DNA of 16,616 bases from Massilia sp. (GCA_039927975.1 JBDSTZ010000252.1:1-16616); one strand, 5' to 3'. Shown: positions 3,098 through 16,222, numbered from the stretch's first letter. Made by a program: numbers and translations. The notes: generated by a model not told the origin, from the sequence alone.

Positions 3098-3976
3098 CTA
3101 TTGGGCCCGGTCCAAACGCCGTGGCCGCTCGATCACCTCGCGGCAGGCCGCGGCGATGTCCGCTCCCCATTCGGCCAGCAGCGGCCCGGTCGGCACCAGC
3201 CGATCGTCGACTTCCAGCATGCCGATCCAGGCCCGCACCCGCACAGGCGCCAGCGCACCGAAGCACTGCTGGGCGACGACGTCCCTGCCGTTTTCCGGCC
3301 CACCCAAACGCTTGCCTGCACAGGAACCAGATTCCGGATGCAGCGGCGCGAAACCCGTTCCCTGGTTTCGCGAGTTGCCGCTCGTTTCATAGAACACGCT
3401 GATGGCGGGGGTGTAGCGCGTGAGCGTGTCCGGCAGCACCAAGGCGACGTCCCTGACCGCCGCTTCGTAGATATTCCCGGCATCGCCTTCCCACTCGATT
3501 TGCTGGCGCTGGCCGGCCGGGCCGCGGAAGCTCAGTGCCAGGCCGGCGGCGGACAGGTCGAGCGCGTCGCGATCGACCGTGAAGCGCGCTTCGAGCGGGT
3601 AGACTGGCCGGTAGTCGGGCGCGCGGCGATAGCGCAGGCTGTAGGTGATGCCTGGCGTGAAACCGCCGGCAAGTTCAAGGCGGAACAGGCGCGCGCCTCG
3701 CGGCAGGTCATTCGCCACCGGCCCTGGCCGCGCGACTTCCAGCGGCGTCACGATCAGTGCCGGCGCGAGCGCCAGTCCGGACGCGCTCACCTCGAAATCG
3801 GCAGGGTTGAGCCCCAGCGACTCGGGCACCATGAACAGCACGCCTCTCAGGTTGGACGGATACCGCTGCGCGCTGGCGTGCGGGAATCCGATCGTGGTGC
3901 TCGCGATGCACTGTGCCTGAGCGACGCCGTGCACGATTGCGGCGATGGCGAACATGACGATGCGAAGATGTTGCAT
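3098..3976 (-). CDS. Secreted protein of unknown function (Sec signal peptide), 292 aa
   Basis: An ATG at 3976 and a TAG stop at 3098-3100 bound the ORF. The N-terminus MQHLRIVMFAIAAIVHGVAQA-QC has a signal-peptide n/h/c structure. GC3 codon bias is on the minus strand. The overlapping + ORF 2963..4066 is Arg/Ala-rich with no motifs. No domain is recognisable by eye. Confidence 0.65.
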   Translation of the reverse strand: MQHLRIVMFAIAAIVHGVAQAQCIASTTIGFPHASAQRYPSNLRGVLFMVPESLGLNPADFEVSASGLALAPALIVTPLEVARPGPVANDLPRGARLFRLELAGGFTPGITYSLRYRRAPDYRPVYPLEARFTVDRDALDLSAAGLALSFRGPAGQRQQIEWEGDAGNIYEAAVRDVALVLPDTLTRYTPAISVFYETSGNSRNQGTGFAPLHPESGSCAGKRLGGPENGRDVVAQQCFGALAPVRVRAWIGMLEVDDRLVPTGPLLAEWGADIAAACREVIERPRRLDRAQ

Positions 3977-4120: not shown

Positions 4121-7081
4121 TTACTGGCCGAAGCGGTAACGCAGGTTCAGCCCGAAGTTACGGCCGTTACGATAGTGCTGCAACTCGAGGCCGGTCTCGT
4201 AATTGCCACCTGGTTCGCCGATGTAGCGGTTAGGCGCCTTGTCGAGAATGTTCGAGGCGTTCAGCGAGAGGGTCAGGTCCTTGGTGATGTTGTAGTTGAC
4301 CGAGCCGTCCAGGATACCGTAGGCGCCCATGTAGCGGCCCAAGATCGGTTGGGCGTCGAGCGCGAACACGGCGGCCGAACGCCAGGTGTAGACCAGGCGG
4401 GCGGAGAACTTCTGGTCTTCATACATGCCGCTGAAGCTGGCGCTGTTTTTCGACTGGAAGGGCTGCCACAGCTTGACGATGTTCGGTGCCGCCGCGGTGC
4501 CGTAGTTGACCGGATTCTCGGTCGTGACGTAGGTGTACGAACCGGACACGCCGAAGTTCTTCAGCCAGCTCAGCGAGTTGTCGAAGAAGTACTGGCCCGA
4601 CAGTTCGACGCCGCGTGCGAAACCTTTTTCCGCGTTGACGCGCTTGCTGACGCGATACTGGCCGTTCGTGCAGCTGTTCGACACTTGTCCATTGCCCGGC
4701 ACGTAAGCCGGCGCATTGTCGAGCGTGACGCATTCGCTGACATCGCTGAAGAAGCCCTTGATGGATTTGTTGAACACCGCCGCCGCGACATAGTTCGTCT
4801 TGTTGAAGTAGTGTTCAAGCGACAGGTCGAGGTTGTCCGACACCAGCGGCTTCAATTCCGGATTGCCGCGGCTACCGGTGCCGTCGACCGGATTGTAGTT
4901 GACGAACGGGTTCAGGTCGCCCAGCGCCGCGCGGGTCATGCCCCGGCCATAGCCGAAGCGCAGCAGGGTTTCCTTGCTGATATCGTAGGTCGCGTTGAAC
5001 GATGGCAGGGTGTTGCTGTACTCGGTGGTGCGCGCATTGTCGATCAGGCCGTTGACGCTGTTGATCTTGGTGATGGCCGTGCCGTTGGTGCGCACATAGC
5101 GCACACCGACTGCGCCGCGCAGGTGCTCGTCGAGGGCGGCGAATTCACCGACCACGTAGATGGCCTTGGTTTTCTCGTCGACGTAGCGGCGGTCCTGGAT
5201 GCGCTCGAGCAGCGCGCTTTCCATCTGGATGCCGGCCAGCGGGAATTGCGAACGGACCTGGTCGCCGAGCAGCAGATCCGGCGAGTACACCACGTAACCA
5301 CCCGAATAACCGGTGGTGCCGCCCATGAAGTTGGTCGGCGACGACTGGGTCACGCCATAGGTGCTGGCGAGGATGCCGTTGCTGCGGTCGGCTGCCAGCC
5401 CTTTGCCGTCGGTGGTCAACGGACGGTTGTTGTAGCTCCAGTTCTGCGACAAGTCGTCCTGCTTGGCAAGGCGGGTGCCGAACTTGATGCGCTTGAACAG
5501 GCCGTCCTCGATCGAATAGACGCCGGACAAGGCGAGCGCTTTGGCGCTGTCTTTGGAGGCCGAATTGTTACCGTTGTTAAATTCGCGGAACACGAAGTTG
5601 CTCGGGTCCGACAGACTCGGGCCGCTGAAATTGAGGGTGTGCGGCGAGCCATCGGCGACGCGCGAGGTGGTCCACGACAGGCCGTTCTTGGAGTCGAGGA
5701 AAACCGTGCGGTTGTCGGTGCGCTTGGTCGCTTTCAGGAAGGCGTAATCGGCTTTCAGGGCCAGGCTCGGAGTCGGGTTCCAGTCGCTGCCAAACGCCAC
5801 GTTCCAGGTCGAGTACGGGGTATGTTCGTCCACCGACACGGTGTTCACGGTCGAGTTGAGGAAGTCACCGCTCAGGGCACGCTTGGTAGCGAGCACGTCG
5901 TTGGCGCCGCCGCTGACGTTGCGTGCCGACATACCCTTGTCGAAGGTGAACGGCGAGGTTTGCAGGTTCGCCACGTTGACGCCGTCGTTCGAATTGAGGG
6001 CGCGGTAGTTCTGGTGGTACAGGTAGTAGGTGTAGTTGCTTTCGACGTAGAAGCGCAGGGTGTTGTCGACGCGGTAGTCGGCGGCGCCACTGAAGCCCTT
6101 GCGCTCGCGCATGATGGTTTCCTGCGACACGTTGGTGTTCAACGTGGTCGTGACCATGATGTTGTCGATCTGCGCTTGGGTCAGGCCGGTGTTGTCGGGT
6201 GTGTTCGGGCCGATGCTGCCGGCCGTGTTACGGATCGGCACGTTGATCAGGGCATTGATGTCGCTGCGGCCGACAAACTGCGCCTGGGCCTGGAACGGCG
6301 AGTTGGTGGTGTTGGCGGCGGCCAGGGTCGCGTACTCGGCGCTGTCGGCGCGCACCGCGCGTTTCAGGGCCGGGCCGCGGTTGCCCGGGTTGTTATCCGA
6401 GCGGTTGGTGCTGTTCTGCAATTGGCCGGCCAGGGTGTAGCCGAAGCGGCTGCCGCCGCCGAGGTCAATGCGGTTGGCAATGAGTCCGAACACATCCGGC
6501 TCGGTCTGCTTGGCCAGGTCGTTGTAGCGGGCGCCGGCGGAGATCGCGCCGGTCAGGCCCAGCTTGAAATCGCTCGGGTTGCGGGTGCGCACGTTGACCA
6601 GGCCGCCGATGCCGCCTTCGATGTGCTCGGCCGATGGATTCTTGTAGACGTCGACGCCGGCGATCATGCCGGGAATCGCGCTTTCGATGTTGTATTCGCG
6701 GTTGCCGGCGGAGAAGAACGCACGGCCGTTCACCAGCGAGGCGGTTTGGCCGGACAGGCCGCGGATGGTCAGGCCCGAACCGTTGCCGACTGGCGCCGCG
6801 CCTTCGCCGCCGTAGCGGTAGCCCTGCACGCCTGGAATCCGGGTCAGCGTTTCGGCGACGTTCGGATCGGGCAGCTTGCCGATGTCTTCGGCGGTGATCG
6901 AGTCGACCACTTCCATCGCGTCGCGCTTGATGGCGACCGACGAACGGGCGCTGGCCTTCATGCCGGTGACGACGACGGTTGGCGTGACCGCGTCGTCTGC
7001 CGCTACATGGGCGGCAAAGGCTTGCGACACCGCGAGTGCGATGGCGGACACTTTGAGTGTTCTTTGGAAATGCTTGTTCAT
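4121..7081 (-). CDS. TonB-dependent outer-membrane receptor of the large (986 aa) type typical of oligosaccharide uptake
   Basis: The signal peptide is MNKHFQRTLKVSAIALAVSQAFA-AHV. A TonB-box-like TPTVVVTG is present. Plug-domain motifs include DSITAEDIGKLPDPNVAETLTRIPGV and LTIRGLSG. The long beta-barrel ends ...LNLRYRFGQ with a terminal aromatic-x-x motif. The RBS aggggat lies 8 nt upstream of the ATG at 7081. Confidence 0.95.
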   Translation of the reverse strand: MNKHFQRTLKVSAIALAVSQAFAAHVAADDAVTPTVVVTGMKASARSSVAIKRDAMEVVDSITAEDIGKLPDPNVAETLTRIPGVQGYRYGGEGAAPVGNGSGLTIRGLSGQTASLVNGRAFFSAGNREYNIESAIPGMIAGVDVYKNPSAEHIEGGIGGLVNVRTRNPSDFKLGLTGAISAGARYNDLAKQTEPDVFGLIANRIDLGGGSRFGYTLAGQLQNSTNRSDNNPGNRGPALKRAVRADSAEYATLAAANTTNSPFQAQAQFVGRSDINALINVPIRNTAGSIGPNTPDNTGLTQAQIDNIMVTTTLNTNVSQETIMRERKGFSGAADYRVDNTLRFYVESNYTYYLYHQNYRALNSNDGVNVANLQTSPFTFDKGMSARNVSGGANDVLATKRALSGDFLNSTVNTVSVDEHTPYSTWNVAFGSDWNPTPSLALKADYAFLKATKRTDNRTVFLDSKNGLSWTTSRVADGSPHTLNFSGPSLSDPSNFVFREFNNGNNSASKDSAKALALSGVYSIEDGLFKRIKFGTRLAKQDDLSQNWSYNNRPLTTDGKGLAADRSNGILASTYGVTQSSPTNFMGGTTGYSGGYVVYSPDLLLGDQVRSQFPLAGIQMESALLERIQDRRYVDEKTKAIYVVGEFAALDEHLRGAVGVRYVRTNGTAITKINSVNGLIDNARTTEYSNTLPSFNATYDISKETLLRFGYGRGMTRAALGDLNPFVNYNPVDGTGSRGNPELKPLVSDNLDLSLEHYFNKTNYVAAAVFNKSIKGFFSDVSECVTLDNAPAYVPGNGQVSNSCTNGQYRVSKRVNAEKGFARGVELSGQYFFDNSLSWLKNFGVSGSYTYVTTENPVNYGTAAAPNIVKLWQPFQSKNSASFSGMYEDQKFSARLVYTWRSAAVFALDAQPILGRYMGAYGILDGSVNYNITKDLTLSLNASNILDKAPNRYIGEPGGNYETGLELQHYRNGRNFGLNLRYRFGQ

Positions 7082-7153: not shown

Positions 7154-7169
7154 GGATATCGATAACAAA
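7154..7169. promoter_or_regulatory. Candidate operator ggATATCGATAACAAA upstream of the TBDR gene (copy 1 of a motif shared across the locus)
   Basis: The motif sits 73-88 nt upstream of the TBDR ATG, immediately downstream (minus-strand sense) of a TATGAT -10-like hexamer. Its 8-bp palindromic core TATCGATA is identical to the copies at 11298-11336 and 13794-13809. Confidence 0.45.
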
Positions 7170-7301
7170 CCGGAGCGATCATACGAGAATTTCTTTTGAT
7201 AATGAATACTTTTTTGACTTGTTGCGTATGTACAACGCTCAAGCGCCCCTCCCTCCTTTCTTGATGCGCGATACGCGCGACATGGCTCAACGGCGGCGCA
7301 T

Positions 7302-7375
7302 GTCGCGCGTGTCGTTCGTGGTCGCGCGTGTCGTTCGTGTCGCGCATGTCGTTCGTGTCGCGCATGTCGCGCAAG
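7302..7375. repeat. Tandem direct repeat with a 19-nt unit gtcgcgcgtgtcgttcgtg, two perfect and about two degenerate copies, in the PEP-CTERM/TBDR intergenic region
   Basis: Units are at 7302-7320 and 7321-7339 (both perfect), 7340-7357 (18 nt, G to A change), then a decaying copy. There are no interspersed unique spacers, so this is not a CRISPR array. It creates the artefactual MSFVSRMSFVSR peptide of track ORF 7328..8104. Confidence 0.75.
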
Positions 7376-7492
7376 TCGCATATGTCGTCCACATCGTCCG
7401 CATCGCGCGGCAACGCGGCAACACTAGCCCCGCCGACAGGGCGAGCGCCCCGTCGGCCGATCAAACATCGCGTGGAAAAATGCCTCGGTGGC

Positions 7493-8083
7493 TCAGCCCT
7501 GGCGGCGGCGCAGCGCGGCGAACATGGCGCAGCCGGCCACCAGCATCAGCAGGAACGGCGCCGGTTCCGGCACCTGGTTCACTTGCGTGAGCGCGTTGGT
7601 GACGAAGCTCAGTTGCTGGCCGATCGGCGCACCCGGCTGGACGAAAATGCTGCCGAGGTCGCCGTTGGCGCCCAGATAGCTGGTGTCGTTGAACAAGGCC
7701 CAGCTGAACGCGCTGCCGTCGCCGCTGCCGGCCACGAAGCTGACATCGAAGATGAAGTGGCCGCCCAGCGTGATCGCCTGTACCAGGTCGCCACCGCCGC
7801 CGGGGCTGCTGAACACGACTGTGCCTGGCAGCGCGCCACTGACCGAACCGCTGGTGTTCTCGGCGCCCACCAGCGCGCCGGTCAGGCCGCTGAGGGAGGC
7901 GCTGCTGCCAGTGTCGGACAACACCAGGAAATTGAAACCGAGGTAAGCGCTGCCGCTACCCAGGGTCGAGGTGTCGATGTCGACGTGGAAGTACGGCACG
8001 GCGGTCGCGCCGGCGCCGCCGGCCGAGGCGCACAGCGCGAGCGCCAGCGCCAGGCGTGCGAAGATATTTTTGTAGTGATGCAT
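7493..8083 (-). CDS. PEP-CTERM sorting-domain protein (putative exosortase substrate), about 196 aa, with a Gly/Ser-rich N-terminal domain of unknown function
   Basis: The C-terminus ...VNQVPEPAPFLLMLVAGCAMFAALRRRQG* is a canonical PEP-CTERM (VPEP, TM helix, Arg cluster). The signal peptide is MHHYKNIFARLALALALCASAGGAGA. A strong RBS AAGGAGA lies 6 nt upstream of the ATG at 8083. The track start at 8131 is rejected because it overlaps the upstream gene and has no RBS. The start is 10 nt downstream of the lyase A stop, so the two genes are in one operon. Confidence 0.85.
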   Translation of the reverse strand: MHHYKNIFARLALALALCASAGGAGATAVPYFHVDIDTSTLGSGSAYLGFNFLVLSDTGSSASLSGLTGALVGAENTSGSVSGALPGTVVFSSPGGGGDLVQAITLGGHFIFDVSFVAGSGDGSAFSWALFNDTSYLGANGDLGSIFVQPGAPIGQQLSFVTNALTQVNQVPEPAPFLLMLVAGCAMFAALRRRQG

Positions 8084-8093
8084 GGTGGTCTCC

Positions 8094-11000
8094 TTAATAT
8101 TTAACGCTGATGAATTTCGACGTGTACCCAATGGCCGCCTTGTTCGGATTCGAGAAGGTGGTCGTCAAGGTCACGGTCTGTCCAGGCGCCAGATCGGCCG
8201 CCGGCAGCGTGATGTACGGCGCGCCGTCATGCGTGCCGGTGGCGTTGTCGAGCGTGACGCCGGCGGTAAGGCCGTCGAGCCGGAATTGCAGCGGGCCGTA
8301 CAGCGTGGCGTCGCTGGTGTTGGTGATGCTGACGGTGCCGGTGTACTTGAGCGTGAAGCGGTTCATCGTCAGGCCCGAGCGCATGATCTTCGCGCTGGCG
8401 CCCAGGTCGACCGGGGTCAGCAAGTCGTAGCGGGTGCCGAAGAAGCGCAGTTCGCCGTACGACGAAATGCCGGGGAAGGCGGGATCGGTCGGCACGCCCG
8501 GATGGTCGACGCGCATCATGAAGTAGCGGTAGCGCTGCTTCTCCAGGCCTGGCACCACGGGGATGACTTCCATCTCGAAATTGCGCTCGGTGGTGTCGCT
8601 CGTTTCACGGCTCGACAGCAAGGTCCAGCTGGCGTTGTCGTTCGAGCCGTAGATGTTCAAGCCCTGCGAGCGGTTGGCGAACATGAAGCGCGCCTGCACG
8701 CCGATGGCGCCGAGCGACATCCGGTAGTCGGCGCCGAGATCGAGGTAGGCCGGCGCGCGCAGGTCGCCCGAGTAGCTGTTGTAGTCGCCGTCGACCAGCA
8801 GCGCGGCGCGGTTGCGGTCGAAATTGGTGGTGCCGGCGATGAAGTTCTTGCTCCAGTCCAGGCTGCCGTCGGCGACCACGAGCGGATTGAGCAGTTCCAG
8901 TTTGGCGGTCACGCCCTGCACTTGCTTGAGCAGGGCCGGGAAGTCGGCGTCGCTGGTGCTGTCGATGGCCGCCTGCAGCGGCGCCATGCTGGACTTGAAG
9001 GCGGCCAGCGACGGCGTGGTGTACACCTTCTCGGCGCTGTAGCCGTCCTGGGCGACCTGGAAGGCGGTGGCGCGGTCCGGTTGCACACTCAGGCGCGCCG
9101 TCATGGTGTTGATCGAGACGCCATCGGTGACGCTGATGACGATATTGTGCACGCCGACCTGGTCGGCGCCGGGGGTCCAGTTGAACTGGCCGCTGGCGCT
9201 GTCGAGGCTGGCGCCGGCCGGCAGGCTGATGCCCTCGTAGACCGGGGTGTCGGCGGCATTCGCGTCGGTCGCCTTGTAGTTGCCCGTGTACGGCACGCCC
9301 TGCACCACCAGCTCGGTGACGGGGAACGCCGGCGAGGCGAAGAACGGCACCGTCAGCTGGGTCGGCGCGGCCATGTTGACGAAGTCGACGTCCACCGTGC
9401 TGCCTTCGGCGCCGCTGAACTTGAAGACGATCAGGTTGGCGCCGAGCCACTTGCCGGCGGTCGCCGCGTTCGACGAGTCGGGCACGATGTAGCGCCACTG
9501 GCCGTGCGTGTTGGGCACCGTGATGTCGGCCCACGGACTGGCGTTCTGCTCGGCGCTGGCGCTCATTTTCATGACCGCGTTGGTGCGCACCATCATGCCC
9601 ACCGGGGCGAACTTGGCGCGGTCCGCATAGCCGACGTCGTGGAAGGCGATGGTGGCGCCGGCCGGCTTGACGTCGGCGTGGCCATAGGTGCGTCCCGCTT
9701 CGGTCTGGGTGGTCCAGGCGCCCGCGATGAAACTGCTCTTGCGTTCGGTCTGCAGCAAGCCCTGGTCGTTCGGCAGCGCCACGCCGGTCAGCGCGGTCGG
9801 GATGGTCAGGAAGGCTTGCGAGCCCATGTCCTTGTTGTTCGGCGTGGCGTTGCCCCAGAAAATGGCCGGGCCGTTCGAGTGGGCCGCCGCCGCCGCGAGG
9901 TAGGGCGCGGTCGCTTCGACGTCGACGCCTTCCTGGTACTTGTACATATTGTAGATTTCGGCGATCGCGTCGACTTCGTAGAGCCGGCCGCGGTACGCGC
10001 TCGACGGATAGGAGGTGCCGCCATTGGTGTCGGCCCACGGGATCTCGTAGCCGAGCATGTACTGGGCGTAGGCGTTGGCACCCTTTAGCAGGCGGTTGCC
10101 GCCGAACTGATAGACGCTGACCGCGTCGCCCAGGGTCGAGGGCTTGCCGCTGAAGGGATCGACCTTGGTGCCTTGCGCGTTGACCAGGCGGAACAGGCCG
10201 GACAGGATGTCGACGTTGTCGCCGCCGTGGGCTTGGTCGCGGGCCATTTCCTGGATCTGGTAGAACGGCACGCCGAACTTGTTGTACGGGTTGTTCACGT
10301 CGATGAAGGGAATCAGCGGCAGCACGGCGCCGTTGATGTTCTGGCGGGTCGAGGTGGCGTTGACCGTCATCCATTCGACGGTTTCATCGTAGCGCGCGCG
10401 GTTGTCGGTGAAGATCGCGCCCGCCATGCGTCCGACCAGCGAGTAATTGTGCTGGTTCATGAAGCGCTCGTTGCTCGAAAACAGCACGCGCTCGAGCGGG
10501 TCGATCAGGTTGTCCTTGAGCTTCTGGGTGTCGGTATCGGTCCAGGCGAGCGGATAGGAGGTGTAGCTCGGATCGGCGTAGGAGTAGCGCATGATCTCGG
10601 CCGCCTGCAGCATGCGCGAGAGCGGCACGCCGTTGTGGATGTGGGCGTCGGGGAAATACGCTGCGCCGGCCGGATTCATATTGCTCCAGGTGCGCAGGAT
10701 GCGCATGGCGTTGCGGCGATAGTCGTTATTGCCCGTCACGTAGTACAGGATGGCCTGGGTCAGCGCGCCTTGCGAATCGTTGATCAGGCGGGTCTGGGCC
10801 GTATTGTTGTTGAAGTTAGGGGTGTTCGGGGTGTCGACCTTGGTCGAGTCGCGGTTGGTCGGCTGCAGGTTGATGTTGGCGTAGTTGCAGCAGGCGGTGG
10901 CCAGCGCGTCGTAGTAACTCTTGTACGGCTCGACGTCGGCGCGCACCTGCTGACGCATGTAGTCGAGCTGCTCCATCGTGAAGCCGAGCGCCGGATGCTT

Positions 11001-11177
11001 GAAGCCGTTCGGGCTGACGACCGGCTGCGAGGCCGGGGTGGAGATGAAACCGAGCGCTTGAGCGGGCGCCGTTGCCAGCGCCCACAGGGCCGCGGCGACC
11101 GACACTGCCGTGACGCAGGCCTTGAGCGTGCCGCGTGCGGGACGCGCGATGCTGCCATTTTCATAACGATTGTGCAT
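8094..11177 (-). CDS. Secreted multidomain polysaccharide-lyase-like protein (about 1027 aa). Domains are an alginate-lyase/heparinase-type (alpha/alpha)-toroid with a beta-sandwich, a He_PIG-type Ig-like domain, an F5/8 type C (discoidin, CBM32-like) domain and a C-terminal beta-domain.
   Basis: The signal peptide is MHNRYENGSIARPARGTLKACVTAVSVAAALWALATAPAQA-LG. The ATG at 11177 with AAGGA 5 nt upstream is preferred over 11192, which has no RBS. The toroid region is paralogous to the next gene, sharing HP(A/G)L..T...(D)(F/Y)MR..V, AAEIMRY, a Q-HN motif and a RDQ(A/G)H motif. LPAGASLDSASGQFNWTPGADQVGVHNIVISVTDG matches the putative-Ig (He_PIG) pattern. ALLVDGDYNSYSGDLRAPAYLDLGADYRMSLGAIGV..IYGSNDNASWTLL matches F5/8 type C. 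The exact lyase family is unresolved. Confidence 0.75.
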   Translation of the reverse strand: MHNRYENGSIARPARGTLKACVTAVSVAAALWALATAPAQALGFISTPASQPVVSPNGFKHPALGFTMEQLDYMRQQVRADVEPYKSYYDALATACCNYANINLQPTNRDSTKVDTPNTPNFNNNTAQTRLINDSQGALTQAILYYVTGNNDYRRNAMRILRTWSNMNPAGAAYFPDAHIHNGVPLSRMLQAAEIMRYSYADPSYTSYPLAWTDTDTQKLKDNLIDPLERVLFSSNERFMNQHNYSLVGRMAGAIFTDNRARYDETVEWMTVNATSTRQNINGAVLPLIPFIDVNNPYNKFGVPFYQIQEMARDQAHGGDNVDILSGLFRLVNAQGTKVDPFSGKPSTLGDAVSVYQFGGNRLLKGANAYAQYMLGYEIPWADTNGGTSYPSSAYRGRLYEVDAIAEIYNMYKYQEGVDVEATAPYLAAAAAHSNGPAIFWGNATPNNKDMGSQAFLTIPTALTGVALPNDQGLLQTERKSSFIAGAWTTQTEAGRTYGHADVKPAGATIAFHDVGYADRAKFAPVGMMVRTNAVMKMSASAEQNASPWADITVPNTHGQWRYIVPDSSNAATAGKWLGANLIVFKFSGAEGSTVDVDFVNMAAPTQLTVPFFASPAFPVTELVVQGVPYTGNYKATDANAADTPVYEGISLPAGASLDSASGQFNWTPGADQVGVHNIVISVTDGVSINTMTARLSVQPDRATAFQVAQDGYSAEKVYTTPSLAAFKSSMAPLQAAIDSTSDADFPALLKQVQGVTAKLELLNPLVVADGSLDWSKNFIAGTTNFDRNRAALLVDGDYNSYSGDLRAPAYLDLGADYRMSLGAIGVQARFMFANRSQGLNIYGSNDNASWTLLSSRETSDTTERNFEMEVIPVVPGLEKQRYRYFMMRVDHPGVPTDPAFPGISSYGELRFFGTRYDLLTPVDLGASAKIMRSGLTMNRFTLKYTGTVSITNTSDATLYGPLQFRLDGLTAGVTLDNATGTHDGAPYITLPAADLAPGQTVTLTTTFSNPNKAAIGYTSKFISVKY

Positions 11178-11297
11178 GATTGTCCTTATCATTTTTTAAA
11201 TGACCAGGCGATCCAGGGGTCGCGTAGTTCTCCTCCAATGGTATGTTTTCGATACCACAAACGATGCTAGCATGATTTATTGTTATTTCAGTTAAGC

Positions 11298-11344
11298 TTT
11301 TTGTTATCGATATCCTCATTTTTGTTATCGATATCCAATGTCAA
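11298..11344 (-). promoter_or_regulatory. Promoter/operator region of lyase A. Two perfect 18-nt direct repeats tttttgttatcgatatcc at 21-bp spacing lie downstream of a consensus -35 TTGACA.
   Basis: Copies are at 11298-11315 and 11319-11336, separated by tca. Each contains the palindrome TATCGATA. On the minus strand the perfect TTGACA (rc of 11339-11344) is followed by operator 1 and then operator 2, placing the operators over the spacer/-10/+1 region. This is an AT-rich island in GC-rich DNA, 121-159 nt upstream of the ATG. Confidence 0.5.
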
Positions 11345-11468
11345 TACGCGACTCCCTATGATCACCTCGGCAAGTAGGGGGAAAGTGCCACTGCGCGGCG
11401 CGGACGCGGCTGTGCTCTCAAGTGCAACATTAGGCGAAAAAGCAACAGAATCCGGCGCACGGGCACGC

Positions 11469-11491
11469 AAAAAGGGGCGCCGAAGCGCCCC
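11469..11491 (-). terminator. Rho-independent terminator of lyase B
   Basis: The stem ggggcgc pairs with gcgcccc around a cgaa loop (11474-11491). It is preceded on the + strand by AAAAA (11469-11473), which gives a U-tract on the minus strand, and lies 44 nt downstream of the TAA stop at 11535-11537. Confidence 0.6.
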
Positions 11492-11534
11492 ACCCTTGCA
11501 GCAAAAACCGAATGGCACCCGGGGCGCCGCCCGC

Positions 11535-13703
11535 TTAACTTTGCATCAGCGTGACAATCTCGCTGGCGCTGAGCGCGCCGCTGTAGATGCGGAAGTCGTC
11601 GATTTTGCCGTTGAAGTAAGGGTCGCTGGCGTATTGCGAGCGGCCGATCCAGTTCTGGTTGGTCGAGCCGAGCCGGAACGGCGCGTGCTTGATGTCGGGG
11701 CTCGATCCAACCAGTGCGCCGTTGACGTAGAGCGAGCCGTTGCTGCCTGCCAGGGTCACGGCCACGTGCACCCACTGCCCGGTCGGCAGCGCGGCGGTGC
11801 CGACGATGCCCTGTTCGCCGACGCCGTAATCGGTCGTGATGCCAAAGCGCAGCAGGCCGTTGTTGGTGCTCGGGGTCAGCATCATGTAGTGCTCGGTGCC
11901 GTTACCGAAATCGAAGATGCGCGTCCAGTTGCGCGCGGCGTCCCAGTACACCCAGGCGGCGATGGTGAAGTCGGCCAGCGTGCGCACCACGTCAGTCGGC
12001 AGGCTGACGTAATCGTTGCTGCCGTCGAAGGCCAGCGCGTTGCCGCTGCGCCCGGCCACCCACAACGGACCGTTGACCAGGGTGCCGGACTGGCCGCGCC
12101 CGGTGGCGTCGGCCGCCACCGTGCCGCTGGTTTCGTCGAACTTGAGCCAGACGTGCGGACGCTTGCCCGCGCCGACCTTCACCTCGGCCGAGGGCGCGCT
12201 TTCGCCGGCCGGGCCGACCGCCGTCACCACGTAATAATAGAGGCCGCTGCTCACGCCAGTGTCGGTCCAGGTGAGCAAGTCGCTGATGCCGCTGGCGACG
12301 GTGGTGTACGGCCCGCCCGAGATGGTGGCGCGCTTGACCTTGTAGCTGGTGGCCTGGGCACTGCCCCACCACGACAGCAGCACCGCGCCGCCGCTCCAGT
12401 TTCCGGTCAGCCCGCTTGGCGCTGCACCGGCGGCGTATGGATCGCGCGTGAAGGTGAGCGTGCCAAAGCCAAGCTGGTCACCGTTGCCGCCGTTGTTTTC
12501 CGGACGCATCTGCGCGGCCTGCAGCGCGGTGTACGGCGCGGCCAGGCCCTTGCGGTTGACGTAGTGGTTCAGCACCAGTTCCCACACCGGACGCAGGCTG
12601 CCCTGCGAGGCCGGCGACAGCCCCGGCTGGGTGTTGTTGATGTTCTTGTAGAGCGTGAACGGCACACTGTAGTGGGCGCCGCTGGCGTCGGTCAGATTCG
12701 ATTTCGCCACATACTCCGAGCCGGCCAGGAAGCGGTTGTTATCGTAGCCGAACATGTCGTCGCCCTGGTTCCAGGCCATTTCGCAAAACACACTGGCGAG
12801 GCCGATCCCCAGCGTGCAGTGGCCCTGATCGCGGCCGCTTTCCTGCCACTGTCCCAGATGACCCGGATGCACGTAGTACACGGCCTGGCTGCTGCTGCCG
12901 TTGCCCGCTCCGGTCTTGAAGTAATTGATCGCCTCGTCGTACAGGTCGGCGCGGTCGCAAAAGACGCCGATCGCGATGATCGCGGCGATCGTGCACTGGT
13001 CCCAGTTGGCCCAGTAATTGGTGATGTCGGCGCCGTTGTGCTGGACCAGGAACTGGTGGTTCAGCGGATAGAAGACATTGAGCAGCAAGTTCTGGAACTT
13101 GGTCTGGTCGGCCGCCGCCCAGCCGGGATAGGTGCGCATGATTTCGGCGGCGTTGGCCCATTCGTAGCCTTGGATGCCGGCAGCGAGGAAGCGGTCGGCG
13201 TTGCCGGTCAGGGTCGTCATGGTCGACGACCAGGCGTTCAGGAAGACCACCGCCTGGTCGGCGTAGGCGGTGTCGCCGGAAACCTTCCAGCGCAGCGCCA
13301 TCTGGTAGGTGCGATGGATATCGATAACCATTTGGTTCACGTTGTCGCCGGTGCCGCCGCGGATCACCGTCTGCAGCGCGCGCGGCGCGGTGCCGAGCTG
13401 GGAGTAGCCGTTGGCCAGCAGAGCGTTCCAGCCGTCCAGCCAGGGCTGGGCGCCGGCCGTCACCTTGGCGCGCATGCGGGTGAAGTCCGCTTCGGTGTGC
13501 AGCAGGCCCGGGTGGATGAAGGTGCGCGCGACCAGGGCGTCGGCGAGCAGGGTCGGCGCCGCCGCGCCGGGGGCCGCCGTGGAGGTCTCGGCCGCGCCGC
13601 CGCAACCGGACAGGCTGAGCGGGCCGAGCGTGGCCAGCCCGAGTCCGCCCGCGCACAGCGAACGGCGTTTCATGGAAAATTTTTGATCGTTGTTATTTGA
13701 CAT
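11535..13703 (-). CDS. Lipoprotein alginate-lyase-family-like (alpha/alpha-toroid) polysaccharide lyase with a C-terminal fibronectin type III domain and a LamG_3 (concanavalin A-like lectin) domain, 722 aa
   Basis: The ATG at 13703 has GAGGAG 5 nt upstream. The N-terminus MSNNNDQKFSMKRRSLCAGGLGLATLGPLSLSGC has a lipobox LSGC, and the RRSL may indicate Tat export. The catalytic toroid is paralogous to lyase A (FIHPGLLHTEADFTRMRAKV, AAEIMRTY, VQHN, RDQGHCTLG). An FN3-like segment follows (SWWGSAQATSYKVKRATISGGPYTTVASG...YYYVVTAV). LamG_3 motifs are also present (WVYWDAARNWTRIFDFGNG....GKIDDFRIYSGALSASEI). Confidence 0.8.
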   Translation of the reverse strand: MSNNNDQKFSMKRRSLCAGGLGLATLGPLSLSGCGGAAETSTAAPGAAAPTLLADALVARTFIHPGLLHTEADFTRMRAKVTAGAQPWLDGWNALLANGYSQLGTAPRALQTVIRGGTGDNVNQMVIDIHRTYQMALRWKVSGDTAYADQAVVFLNAWSSTMTTLTGNADRFLAAGIQGYEWANAAEIMRTYPGWAAADQTKFQNLLLNVFYPLNHQFLVQHNGADITNYWANWDQCTIAAIIAIGVFCDRADLYDEAINYFKTGAGNGSSSQAVYYVHPGHLGQWQESGRDQGHCTLGIGLASVFCEMAWNQGDDMFGYDNNRFLAGSEYVAKSNLTDASGAHYSVPFTLYKNINNTQPGLSPASQGSLRPVWELVLNHYVNRKGLAAPYTALQAAQMRPENNGGNGDQLGFGTLTFTRDPYAAGAAPSGLTGNWSGGAVLLSWWGSAQATSYKVKRATISGGPYTTVASGISDLLTWTDTGVSSGLYYYVVTAVGPAGESAPSAEVKVGAGKRPHVWLKFDETSGTVAADATGRGQSGTLVNGPLWVAGRSGNALAFDGSNDYVSLPTDVVRTLADFTIAAWVYWDAARNWTRIFDFGNGTEHYMMLTPSTNNGLLRFGITTDYGVGEQGIVGTAALPTGQWVHVAVTLAGSNGSLYVNGALVGSSPDIKHAPFRLGSTNQNWIGRSQYASDPYFNGKIDDFRIYSGALSASEIVTLMQS

Positions 13704-13793
13704 TCGGTCTCCTCTTCAGTTGAAAGCCCGCGTGCCCGGCGAGATTGTCGAGCATGAACGGGGGTGCTTGAAGCAGGCAGATTATGCGCGGTA

Positions 13794-13809
13794 TTTTATC
13801 GATAACACG
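13794..13809. promoter_or_regulatory. Candidate operator ttTTATCGATAACAcg (perfect 10-bp palindrome TTATCGATAA) upstream of lyase B, adjacent to a CATAAT -10-like hexamer
   Basis: The site lies 91-106 nt upstream of the lyase B ATG on the minus strand. On the minus strand the order is TGTTATCGATAAAA, then taccgcg, then CATAAT. It is the same motif as at 7154-7169 and 11298-11336. Confidence 0.45.
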
Positions 13810-13901: not shown

Positions 13902-13977
13902 ATGCATTTGAGATGCATTCGGCATGCAATCACTATGCAATCAGCATGCAATCAGCGTTCAATCAGCGGGTAATCGT
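13902..13977. repeat. Array of 7 heptads ATGCA(A/T)T (decaying to gttcaat and gggtaat) at exact 11-bp spacing, with a core unit ATGCAATCAGC
   Basis: Heptad starts are at 13902, 13913, 13924, 13935, 13946, 13957 and 13968. The array lies in the divergent intergenic region between lyase B (-) and the flotillin-like gene (+). It creates a spurious N-terminal extension of track ORF 13784..16222. Confidence 0.8.
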
Positions 13978-14266
13978 GATGCGGTGGATATGTACTCGGT
14001 CGGCGAACCGCAACGTGCGCAATGGCCCGGACCGGTCCGGCGCTGCGCAGGGAGCACAGGATGCGGCATCAGGACGCCCGACGTTTACGGATTGTTTACG
14101 CCATCCGGCAATGTCTTTACGACATTTTTATCGCCGGGCCGATACGCTGATTGCATGGCCGAACCCTCTGTTGTCCCGCCGCCCGCGCAGCGCGCCGGCC
14201 GACACCGAGGCGCCCACTTTGTCGACCGCCGTGTTCGCCGCGCGTCGACTGTATCGAAGGAACGCT

Positions 14267-16222
14267 ATGTTAGAGACAGTTTCGATTTTAAAGATATCCG
14301 CAGTGCTCATCATCGCCCTGCTCCTGTTCCTGGCCAGCCAGGTGGTGGTCTACATCGCCAACGAGAAAATCGGTATCGTGGAAAAGAAATGGTCGCGCCA
14401 CGGCTCGGTGCGCCACGGTTTCATCGCCCTGCACGGCGAGGCCGGCTTCCAGCCCGAGGTGCTGCGCGGCGGCTTCCACGTGTTCTTCCCCTTCCAGTAC
14501 CGGGTGCACCGGCACGACCTGGTCACCGTGCAGCAAGGCACCCTCGCCTACGTCTTCGCGCGCGACGGCCTGGCGATGGAGCCGACCCAGAACCTGGCTT
14601 GCAACAAGCACGCCAAGGACTTCACCGACGTGCGCGCCTTCCTGACCGACGGCGGCCAGAAGGGTCTGCAACGCAAGATCCTGCGCGAGGGGACCTACGC
14701 CATCAACCTGGCCCAGTTCGTCGTGCTCACGGCCGACAAGGTGTATGCGCTGCGCCTGCCCGGCGACGGCAATATCGACGGCGCCGGCGAGGCGGTCGGC
14801 AAGCTGGCTGAAACGCTCGACGAGGTGCGCCGGCGCGACGGCTTCGAGCCGCTGGTGATTCGCGCCGACAAGCTGGCCGTGATCACCACCCACGAAGGCC
14901 AGTCGCTGCCGGAAGGCACGATCGTCGCGCCGGTGGTCGGCGCCGACCCGGCCGACCCGGCCAGCTACCACCACGATTACCAGAATCCGGAAGTGTTCAT
15001 CGAAGCCGGCGGTTACAAGGGGCGTCAGCTGCAGGTGCTGGTCGAAGGCACTTACTATCTCAACGCCCGCTTCGCCTCGTATGAGATCGTCGACAAGACG
15101 GTGGTCGCGGTCGGCTTTGTCGGCGTGGTCGTGTCCTACACCGGCAAGACCGGCAACGATCTTACCGGCGAGGCCTACCGCCATGGCGAACTGGTCAGCA
15201 GCGACGAGAAAGGCGTGCTGGCCACGCCGCTGATGCCCGGCAAGTACGCGCTCAATCCCTACGCCAAGCGCGTCATCGACGTGCCGACCACTAACTTCAT
15301 CTTGAAGTGGCAGTCGGGCGCGGTCGGCTCGCACGAACTCGACAAGCACCTGAGCGAAGTCTCGCTGATCACCAAGGATGCCTTCGAGCCGGACCTGCCG
15401 CTGTCGGTGGTGGTCAATATCGACTACAAGATGGCGCCGCTGGTGATCCAGCGTTTCGGCGACATCCGCAAGCTGGTCGAGCAGACCCTCGACCCGATGG
15501 TGGCCGCCTACTTCAAGAACATTGGCCAGGGCAAGACGCTGATCGAGCTGCTGCAGGAACGATCCGATATCCAGGAGCGCGCCAAGGCCGAGATGCGCAA
15601 GAATTTCGAGGGCTACAACCTGACCTTGAACGAGGTGCTGATCGGCACCCCGCGCGCCAAGGATGGCGACACCCAAATCGAGGTGATCCTCAAGCAGCTG
15701 CGCGAGCGCCAGGTCTCGCGCGAGCAGCTTGAAACCTACAAGACCAAGGAAGTGGCGGCGGTGCAGGAGCGCATCTTGCGCGAAGCCGAGGCCAGGGCCA
15801 AGCAGCAGACCGCGATCACCGAGTCCGAGCTCGCCGTCAAGATCGCCGAGAACCAGGGTAGCGCGGCGGTGCAGAAGGCCACCAAGGCGGCCGAGGAAGC
15901 ACGCCAGAGCGCCAGTGGCGCGGCCGACGCCAAGCGCTCGCTGGCCGAGGCCGAAGCCTTCCAGATCCAGCGCGTCGGCCAGGCCCAGGCCACCGCCACC
16001 GAACTGAACGTAGCCGCGTATGGCGGCCCCGAGCTGCAATTCCAGCAGACCGTGCTGCTGCGCTTTGCCGAGGCGATCGAACGCGGCCGCATTGCGCTGG
16101 TGCCGTCGATTCAAGCGGGCGGCCAGGGCGGCGGTTCGGCGATCGATGCGTTCATGGGGCTGGCGGCGAGGGAGTTGCTGGCGAAGGGCCGCAGTGCGGA
16201 GACGGATGGCGGCACGCAGTAA
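14267..16222 (+). CDS. SPFH/band-7 domain protein, flotillin-like (YqiK family), about 651 aa with an N-terminal TM helix and an Ala/Glu-rich coiled-coil C-terminal half
   Basis: An ATG at 14267 is preceded by gaaggaacgct. The N-terminus MLETVSILKISAVLIIALLLFLASQVVVYIA is a TM helix. It is followed by an SPFH-like region (KIGIVEKKW...GFHVFFPFQYRVHRHDLVTVQQG). A long EA-rich repeat region follows (EARAKQQTAITESELAVKIAENQGSAAVQKATKAAEEARQ...) and the protein ends in a Gly-rich tail. The track start at 13784 and the antisense ORF 14288..16339 are rejected. Confidence 0.85.
   Translation: MLETVSILKISAVLIIALLLFLASQVVVYIANEKIGIVEKKWSRHGSVRHGFIALHGEAGFQPEVLRGGFHVFFPFQYRVHRHDLVTVQQGTLAYVFARDGLAMEPTQNLACNKHAKDFTDVRAFLTDGGQKGLQRKILREGTYAINLAQFVVLTADKVYALRLPGDGNIDGAGEAVGKLAETLDEVRRRDGFEPLVIRADKLAVITTHEGQSLPEGTIVAPVVGADPADPASYHHDYQNPEVFIEAGGYKGRQLQVLVEGTYYLNARFASYEIVDKTVVAVGFVGVVVSYTGKTGNDLTGEAYRHGELVSSDEKGVLATPLMPGKYALNPYAKRVIDVPTTNFILKWQSGAVGSHELDKHLSEVSLITKDAFEPDLPLSVVVNIDYKMAPLVIQRFGDIRKLVEQTLDPMVAAYFKNIGQGKTLIELLQERSDIQERAKAEMRKNFEGYNLTLNEVLIGTPRAKDGDTQIEVILKQLRERQVSREQLETYKTKEVAAVQERILREAEARAKQQTAITESELAVKIAENQGSAAVQKATKAAEEARQSASGAADAKRSLAEAEAFQIQRVGQAQATATELNVAAYGGPELQFQQTVLLRFAEAIERGRIALVPSIQAGGQGGGSAIDAFMGLAARELLAKGRSAETDGGTQ

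Follow-up and report, generated by a model that had tools for sequence, protein, structure and literature searches.

We consider it likely that two identical 18-mers upstream of an alginate-lyase-type gene in Massilia sp. are two copies of a 14-bp operator of the LacI family, that the distal site of the promoter was doubled in this lineage, and that these sites belong to one regulon controlled by a LacI-family repressor. The window covers a Massilia sp. MAG contig of 16,616 bp from end to end.

The duplicated 18-mer and its recurrence in the window

The 18-mer TTTTTGTTATCGATATCC is present twice on the plus strand (11298-11315 and 11319-11336). The copies are 100% identical and lie 21 bp apart from start to start, separated by the linker TCA (TGA on the minus strand). 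Allowing up to three mismatches, the 18-mer has three matches in the window and none in 200 dinucleotide-preserving shuffles; the third match is GGTTTGTTATCGATATCC at 7154-7171. The exact repeat is not a chance event, and the perfect 18-nt duplication at 21-bp spacing claimed in an earlier note on this DNA is confirmed. A general repeat search lists the 2-copy 21-bp repeat, which is missing from the results of Tandem Repeats Finder at a minimum score of 30. The earlier description also holds for the surroundings. The palindrome proposed within each site is present as TATCGATA, and the fuller recognisable unit is a 14-bp near-palindrome GGATATCGATAACA (minus strand) with a central CG, followed by an A-tract. 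The AT-rich island appears as a dip in GC content to 0.37-0.48 at 11161-11400, compared with 0.60-0.70 in the flanks. The TTGACA placed before the repeats on the coding (minus) strand was found 2 nt upstream of the nearest 18-mer (Table 1).

Genes were called by GC3 frame analysis combined with Pfam and NCBIfam searches, and the lyase, PEP-CTERM and receptor genes all lie on the minus strand. An NCBI MAG protein of 1027 aa (P0001) matches lyase 1 with 100% identity, which agrees with the chosen start; the ribosome-binding site of lyase 1 is AAGGA at 11183-11187. The end of lyase 1 and the PEP-CTERM gene overlap, and both are probably transcribed together. The same pairing occurs in the 12 genome loci and in those metagenome loci long enough to extend beyond the lyase gene, suggesting a functional pair of a secreted lyase and an exosortase-sorted protein. 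The "lyase A / PEP-CTERM operon" that had been named as the target corresponds to this gene pair, which is the predicted regulated unit. An intrinsic terminator separates lyase 2 from the lyase 1 promoter region. The TonB-dependent receptor scores far below the siderophore-receptor cut-off. Neither an inner-membrane transporter gene nor a regulator gene was found in the 16.6-kb contig. At gathering thresholds, Rfam returned a tRNA-Ala as the only hit in the window and no RNA family at the repeats.

Table 1. Genes, promoter elements and operator sites in the window; promoter positions relative to the start refer to the predicted lyase 1 transcription start
Feature	Position	Strand	Details
TonB-dependent receptor, carbohydrate-type TIGR01782 subfamily	4121-7081	minus	485 bits against a cut-off of 310
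Receptor-promoter operator GGATATCGATAACA	7154-7167	plus	exact 14-mer; 25.8 bits; 73 bp upstream of the ATG at 7081
NF038129-family PEP-CTERM protein gene	7493-8131	minus	NCBIfam, 151 bits against a cut-off of 65
Lyase 1, 1027 aa; Alginate_lyase, He_PIG and F5/8-C domains	8094-11177	minus	Pfam
Proximal operator TGGTATCGAAAACA	11244-11257	minus	about +1 to +14; 21.3 bits; imperfect; 58 bp downstream, in the same intergenic region as the repeats
Predicted extended -10, TGcTAGCAT	11264-11272	minus	TG at 11272-11271, hexamer TAGCAT at 11269-11264; phylogenetic footprint
Distal operator GGATATCGATAACA, orthologous to the single distal site of relatives	11302-11315	minus	within 18-mer 11298-11315; centre about -51.5; 25.8 bits
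3-nt linker between the 18-mers	11316-11318	strandless	direct sequence reading
Extra (upstream) distal operator copy GGATATCGATAACA	11323-11336	minus	within 18-mer 11319-11336; centre about -72.5; 25.8 bits
TTGACA hexamer	11339-11344	minus	about -87 to -82; absent from the ten aligned orthologous promoters
Lyase 2 intrinsic terminator	11474-11491	minus	7 G-C pairs, 4-nt loop, T-run
Lyase 2; Alginate_lyase and Laminin_G_3 domains	11535-13703	minus	Pfam/NCBIfam
Intragenic operator-like site GGATATCGATAACC in the lyase 2 coding sequence	13316-13329	plus	20.9 bits
Lyase 2 operator TGTTATCGATAAAA	13794-13807	minus	21.7 bits; upstream of the ATG at 13703

Some further features of the contig were recorded. 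The tRNA-Ala (anticodon GGC) lies on the minus strand at 2835-2910, between a FliD-like ORF (1839-2720) and an unannotated ORF (3098-3976). An intergenic tandem array with a 9/18-nt period, TGTCGCGCATGTCGTTCG, occupies 7296-7387 between the PEP-CTERM gene and the receptor promoter (3.8 copies, 94% matches). At 13913-13967, an 11-nt unit ATGCAATCAGC is repeated five times in tandem within an AT-rich region of about 500 bp between lyase 2 and an SPFH/Band-7 gene, whose coding start by GC3 is probably near 14150-14290 rather than at 13784.

The 14-bp unit recurs well beyond the duplication. With up to three mismatches it has 11 matches in the window, where 0.39 are expected. We built a PWM with a maximum of 28.5 bits from 26 sites of other genomes, none of them in the window. 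It recovers six strong sites of 20.9-25.8 bits, and resampling the window with a first-order Markov model yields 0.9 matches on average even at a threshold of 8 bits. The consensus of the 26 training sites, TGnTATCGATAACA, is an even 7-0-7 palindrome with a central CG. This CG does not vary among the aligned distal and proximal sites, nor among the window sites that score at least 20.9 bits. Five of the six strong copies lie upstream of lyase 1, lyase 2 and the TonB-dependent receptor, and one lies inside lyase 2. The receptor and lyase 2 promoters have a single site each. The receptor site sits just downstream of a candidate -10 (TATGAT, 7183-7178), and the lyase 2 site is located 7 nt upstream of a candidate -10 (CATAAT, 13786-13781) and hence overlaps the -35/spacer region. 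Since the same operator is found at their promoters, the three units of the window would form one regulon. The CG-centred palindromes, their presence at three promoters, their conservation in orthologues and the LacI-family genes that adjoin them in relatives support a role of the 18-mers as operator-type sites for a dimeric helix-turn-helix regulator. The intragenic site at 13316-13329 is 478 bp away from the site upstream of lyase 2 at 13794-13807.

Conserved promoter design and position of the repeats

Twelve loci with lyase 1 orthologues (L001-L012, 68-72% identity) from Pseudoduganella, Massilia and Duganella were found by protein homology. Thus, the set of promoters is unbiased with respect to the motif. 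Ten of them have one design in common, in which a distal site and an extended -10 are followed by a proximal site that covers the predicted start; the two loci excluded from the ten are L005, which is truncated at the contig end, and L010, which has a different arrangement. The distal site reads (G/A)GATATCGATAACA. About 30 nt past it, the pattern C.TG.TA...T is invariant (11/11 aligned promoters), usually in the form TGcTATATT, and the proximal site TG(G/A/C)TATCGATAACA follows 6-7 nt past the extended -10. The leader after the proximal site is about 80-100 nt long and ends in an AAGGA ribosome-binding site. The distance from distal to proximal site is 54-57 bp in the relatives and 58 and 79 bp in the window. 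A similar design is seen on 11 metagenome contigs, 8 of which carry lyase 1 orthologues according to tblastn.

The leaders of the window (11174-11257) and of the twelve loci also share a conserved GGAGAC and, about 35 nt past the proximal operator, CGATA(C/T)G. The latter may pair with the operator left half GGUAUCG, with 6 predicted pairs, 1 of them compensatory, and only -3 kcal/mol. It forms a third operator-like site in L008 and L012 and is degenerate in the window.

The earlier note had suggested a comparison with related strains, and this comparison assigns different histories to the two repeats. In our alignment of the promoters (A1), the repeat at 11315-11302 matches the invariant orthologous distal site column for column, whereas the upstream repeat at 11336-11323 falls into a stretch where all ten orthologous promoters show gaps or lack conservation. 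Hence, the upstream repeat is an insertion particular to this lineage; all ten aligned promoters have a single distal site and the extra copy is found here only. No 21-bp site pair occurs at any other promoter among 45 GC-rich loci. Most hits of a metagenome scan for motif pairs were AT-rich or coding repeats unrelated to these sites, and the GC-rich loci alone were kept. Two loci with four sites at a 21-bp period (L074 and L075) were set aside as they resemble a coding 7-residue repeat. The proximal site of the window differs from its orthologues as well. It carries T to A at a column where all ten orthologues have T (T118 in the first A1 sequence, at least 90% conserved), which gives TATCGAAAACA in the window compared with TATCGATAACA in the orthologues. 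Its PWM score is 21.3 bits, compared with 27.0 bits for the commonest orthologous proximal site TGGTATCGATAACA.

The extended -10 (TGnTAnnnT) lies 32 nt downstream of the repeats and predicts a lyase 1 transcription start near 11257. The window hexamer TAGCAT is weaker than the TATATT of the relatives, and there is no clear -35. Given the position of the extended -10, the repeats would span about -45 to -79 and thus not cover the promoter core but lie upstream of it. The earlier note had described a block of the operon promoter at the repeats. Operators for a dimer are borne out by our data, but their position over the promoter is not; it is the proximal operator, not listed before, that covers the predicted start.

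If TTGACA were nevertheless the -35, the repeats would cover spacer, -10 and start, and the regulator would block the promoter directly, as had been suggested. The hexamer is perfect, it directly neighbours the nearest repeat, and at a short spacer of 15 nt it is followed by AAAAAT, which matches TATAAT in 4/6 positions including A at position 2 and T at position 6. However, the hexamers 16-18 nt past it (AAAATG, AAATGA and AATGAG) are not acceptable as -10. A sigma-70 consensus scan of 10900-11800 reports 0 promoter-like sites, so that neither a TTGACA promoter nor the conserved extended -10 is called. Furthermore, TTGACA is missing in all ten aligned orthologous promoters while TGnTAnnnT is invariant, and the leader would be about 85 nt longer and contain the conserved promoter within the added stretch. 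We therefore regard a TTGACA promoter as improbable; the hexamer is probably a chance occurrence rather than the -35 of the conserved promoter. Inspection of the minus-strand intergenic sequence by eye gave no match to a sigma-54 promoter (TGGCAC-N5-TTGC).

A probable LacI-family regulator and related systems

Using E. coli LacI and PurR as tblastn queries, no LacI-family gene was found in the window or in L001-L012. In L001-L009, ten ORFs of 308-353 aa were considered as regulator and rejected: nine encode enzymes or proteins of transport and signalling, and the tenth is of the AraC family and unlinked to the motif. LacI-family genes do adjoin motif pairs or sites in four other loci (L091, L027, L093 and L094). 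In L091 (Duganella), the LacI gene is divergent from kduI-kduD. In L027, a metagenome contig, it is divergent from a TonB-dependent receptor gene with two perfect sites in between. The metagenome query for pairs, TATCGATAACA, returned many irrelevant repeats and also LacI genes beside GC-rich pairs. The group of the L091 LacI protein has members in Duganella (95% identity), Massilia and Telluria (72-74%) and Pseudoduganella (69%). L093 is from Pseudoduganella namucuonensis, the genome that also contains L001. Here, the gene of P0215, the member of this LacI group in that genome, lies between orthologues of the window receptor (64% identity) and of lyase 2 (75% identity), KduI is encoded divergently, and a motif site is present at each promoter, with TGTTATCGATCACA upstream of the lyase 2 orthologue. 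L094, from the Pseudoduganella sp. LjRoot289 genome that also contains L004, has the order kdgK-kduD-kduI / receptor - GH127-like - LacI with two sites. In both L093 and L094, the site at the receptor promoter directly follows the -10. A LacI gene beside GH65 with the same motif (L060) stems from Rhodanobacter/Dyella and was discarded as the regulator here.

P0215 matches no characterised NCBIfam equivalog and scores far below the GntR and IdnR cut-offs. A LacI-family protein with 82% identity to P0215 (MEO7496530.1 / MEO7578121.1) shares two NCBI accession blocks with lyase 1 of the window (MEO7494571.1 / MEO7578057.1) and, judged by this proximity of accession numbers alone, appears to come from another contig of the same MAG. 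The predicted helix-turn-helix segment of the MEO7496530.1 type is nearly identical to that of P0215 (VSAMTVSRVING compared with VSAMTVSRVVNG). Most likely, the regulator would be a LacI-family repressor orthologous to P0215, with MEO7496530.1 / MEO7578121.1 as its counterpart in the MAG. The same accession blocks contain at least three LacI-family paralogues with near-identical helix-turn-helix segments, so that more than one candidate may bind here. MEO7577723.1 and MEO7493817.1 are paralogues of MEO7496530.1, which is encoded on a contig of 22,239 bp.

In L009 (Massilia sp. LC042), motif-like sites also precede two GH43 genes (a full site GGGTATCGATAACA at 9693-9706, and a one-mismatch core GTGATCGATAACA at 15253-15265). 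Either the regulon is broader than uronate polymers, or the motif is common to paralogous regulators.

The half-site TGTTAT resembles Zur/Fur-type boxes, and Fur regulation is common among TonB-dependent receptors. We also considered regulators outside the LacI family (for example Fur/Zur-like or XRE) as well as sites that bind no protein, for instance a repeat element or an artefact of the assembly. In a published list of mycobacterial Zur sites, one string contains TGTTATCGATAAC, but that site differs in its overall motif, and the idea of a Zur box was dropped on the strength of this one literature match. The receptor is of the carbohydrate type TIGR01782 and far below the siderophore-receptor cut-off, and the 7-0-7 CG-centred palindrome lies beside LacI-family genes in four independent loci. 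For the ancestral sites, an artefact or mobile repeat is excluded by positions that are conserved across genera; no Rfam family was found either. Taken together, these alternatives to a LacI-family regulator are very improbable.

The window sites fit the LacI family in their form. Operators of this family are even-length palindromes of 14-22 bp made of conserved inverted repeats, and even palindromes with a central CG were found for 1173 of 1303 regulators (PMC4052901). The sites of the window are likewise even palindromes with a central CG. In the same survey, about 20% of operons have more than one site, and the inter-site distances peak at 22 and 32 bp, which was read as cooperative binding of dimers (PMC4052901). 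The RafR (Enterobacteriales) and ScrR (Burkholderiales) regulogs have 21-22 bp double sites only (Ravcheev et al. 2014, PMC4052901). The promoter described here resembles them in its CG-centred even palindromes and in two sites two helical turns apart upstream of a sugar-utilisation operon. It shares the 21-bp spacing of this obligatory double-site class. However, doubling is not the rule across promoters, since all ten orthologues are single; it occurs in one lineage and is added to a conserved design of distal and proximal site. The cooperative binding of a dimeric regulator to two same-face sites, as proposed in the earlier note, thus holds with respect to the double operator and its 21-bp distance, while cooperativity is plausible for an arrangement that is known in the family (PMC4052901). 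Furthermore, the exact palindrome TGTTATCGATAACA has been described as a cre-like site (CcpA, LacI family) (PMC9141943).

The overall architecture is similar to the lac and gal systems in having a primary operator at or near the start and an upstream auxiliary operator for the same repressor. The auxiliary upstream operators of these LacI/GalR-family repressors are lac O3 and gal OE. The operator-like site within the coding region of lyase 2 (13316-13329) resembles lac O2. Unlike in lac, the spacing is 54-58 bp and the orthologues of the regulator are without the C-terminal tetramerisation segment: P0215, P0212, P0185 and P0123 end where PurR ends, and the last ~25 residues of LacI align with gaps. 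At 10.5 bp/turn, the centre-to-centre distances put distal and proximal sites ~5.1-5.5 and 7.5 turns apart, and only the two distal copies share a helical phase. A lac-style loop is hence not supported, given the missing tetramerisation segment and, less clearly, these spacings.

GntR-type gluconate repressors, which are also LacI-family members, have operators of the form ATGTTA-N4-TAACAT, nearly the same palindrome as here. The two differ in orthologous group and regulon, with P0215 far under the GntR and IdnR cut-offs. Pairs of the perfect palindrome ATGTTATCGATAACAT, 62-68 bp apart, are found in five GC-rich metagenome loci (L019, L026, L073, L077 and L089), three of which have a LacI-family gene by tblastn (L019, L073 and L089). 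Their neighbours look like gluconate 5-dehydrogenase and 2-hydroxyacid-dehydrogenase, judged from ORF translations alone.

With regard to gene content, carbohydrate-utilisation loci with TonB-dependent receptors (CUT loci) are reported from Xanthomonas and Caulobacter, and several of these loci have LacI-family repressors (Blanvillain et al. 2007, PMC1790865). Similar to these loci, the window has a TIGR01782-type receptor beside secreted polysaccharide-degrading enzymes (two proteins with Alginate_lyase domains), and in the relatives L093, L094 and L027 a LacI-family regulator is encoded in the same locus. The window differs in belonging to the Oxalobacteraceae, in the pairing of Alginate_lyase-type enzymes with a PEP-CTERM protein, and in a contig without regulator and inner-membrane transporter.

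On this basis, a working model can be outlined. In the absence of inducer, repressor dimers on the proximal site would stop RNA polymerase at the start. Dimers would fill the distal site or sites as well, and two dimers on the same face might bind cooperatively. These distal dimers would cover the upstream A-tract region, where the alpha subunit of the polymerase would dock; the A-tract after each distal site is presumably where a UP-element subsite would be. A breakdown product of a uronate-containing polysaccharide would release the repressor, as the linkage to kduI, kduD and kdgK makes a uronate-derived inducer likely.

Alternatively, the distal sites might act positively, with the regulator at about -51.5 and -72.5 recruiting RNA polymerase in a class I manner. 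Some LacI-family proteins (CcpA, Cra) activate when bound upstream of promoters. Relative to the predicted start, the distal sites fall into the class I activator zone, and the weak -10 without a clear -35 would be in line with activation. However, LacI-family members are mostly repressors, and the motif also overlaps the predicted start in every orthologue. Moreover, the receptor sites just past the -10 and the lyase 2 site over the -35/spacer are in typical positions for repression. We give activation a low probability and prefer repression.

Origin of the extra copy and implications

Duplicated operators could be explained by a recent duplication or by strong selection, as had been proposed. 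A copy specific to the lineage is confirmed by the comparison with relatives. The recency of the event is not, because the repeats differ in 0/18 bases between the copies whereas the linker is changed completely: TGA on the minus strand differs in 3/3 bases from the outer flanking triplets ATT and GCT. After a clean 21-bp tandem duplication, the linker would thus need to have changed three times while all 36 repeat positions stayed intact. An imprecise junction would account for this; alternatively, the duplication is older and both copies, including the A-tract, were kept by selection. The nearest relatives of lyase 1 in the collections have 73-74% identity over the full length and 79% for a partial sequence, and the extra copy is known from one MAG contig.

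The extra copy might also be neutral. Slippage or an imprecise duplication would then have produced it, it would have no effect on regulation, and the ancestral distal and proximal sites would be those that matter. The conserved design has one distal site and works, the second copy is absent in all ten aligned genome promoters, and no 21-bp pair is found elsewhere among the 45 GC-rich loci. The changed linker and the unchanged repeats are hard to fit to neutral decay after a clean duplication, the spacing fits the cooperative 21-22 bp class of the LacI family (PMC4052901), and the duplication coincides with a weakened proximal site. A neutral copy therefore seems unlikely, although less so than activation or a TTGACA promoter.

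Returning to a functional copy of the operator, one tentative scenario drawn from these sequence comparisons is compensatory cis-regulatory evolution, which we hold to be about as doubtful as neutrality. The T to A change in the proximal site (27.0 to 21.3 bits) would have been offset by an in-phase duplication of the distal copy, thereby shifting repression upstream, and paralogues may share the sites. If this were true, a block at the start would have given way to a cooperative upstream double site bound by a dimeric, non-looping repressor.

As a whole, the region is typical of LacI-family multi-operator control in a carbohydrate cluster with a TonB-dependent receptor, a kind of system that is well known. 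Its sole unusual feature is that one switch site of an ordinary type is duplicated in this Massilia lineage. The doubled operator represents a small natural case of a change in operator number within a conserved promoter design and implies no new mechanism. The regulator group and its regulon appear to be uncharacterised. Our analysis provides a predicted regulon for this LacI-family group in the Oxalobacteraceae (Massilia, Pseudoduganella and Duganella), in which one 14-bp operator is predicted to tie together lyases, a PEP-CTERM protein, a TonB-dependent receptor and the kduI-kduD-kdgK uronate pathway. This may be of use for the annotation of polysaccharide-utilisation genes in soil and rhizosphere Betaproteobacteria, and as a source of operator and promoter parts.
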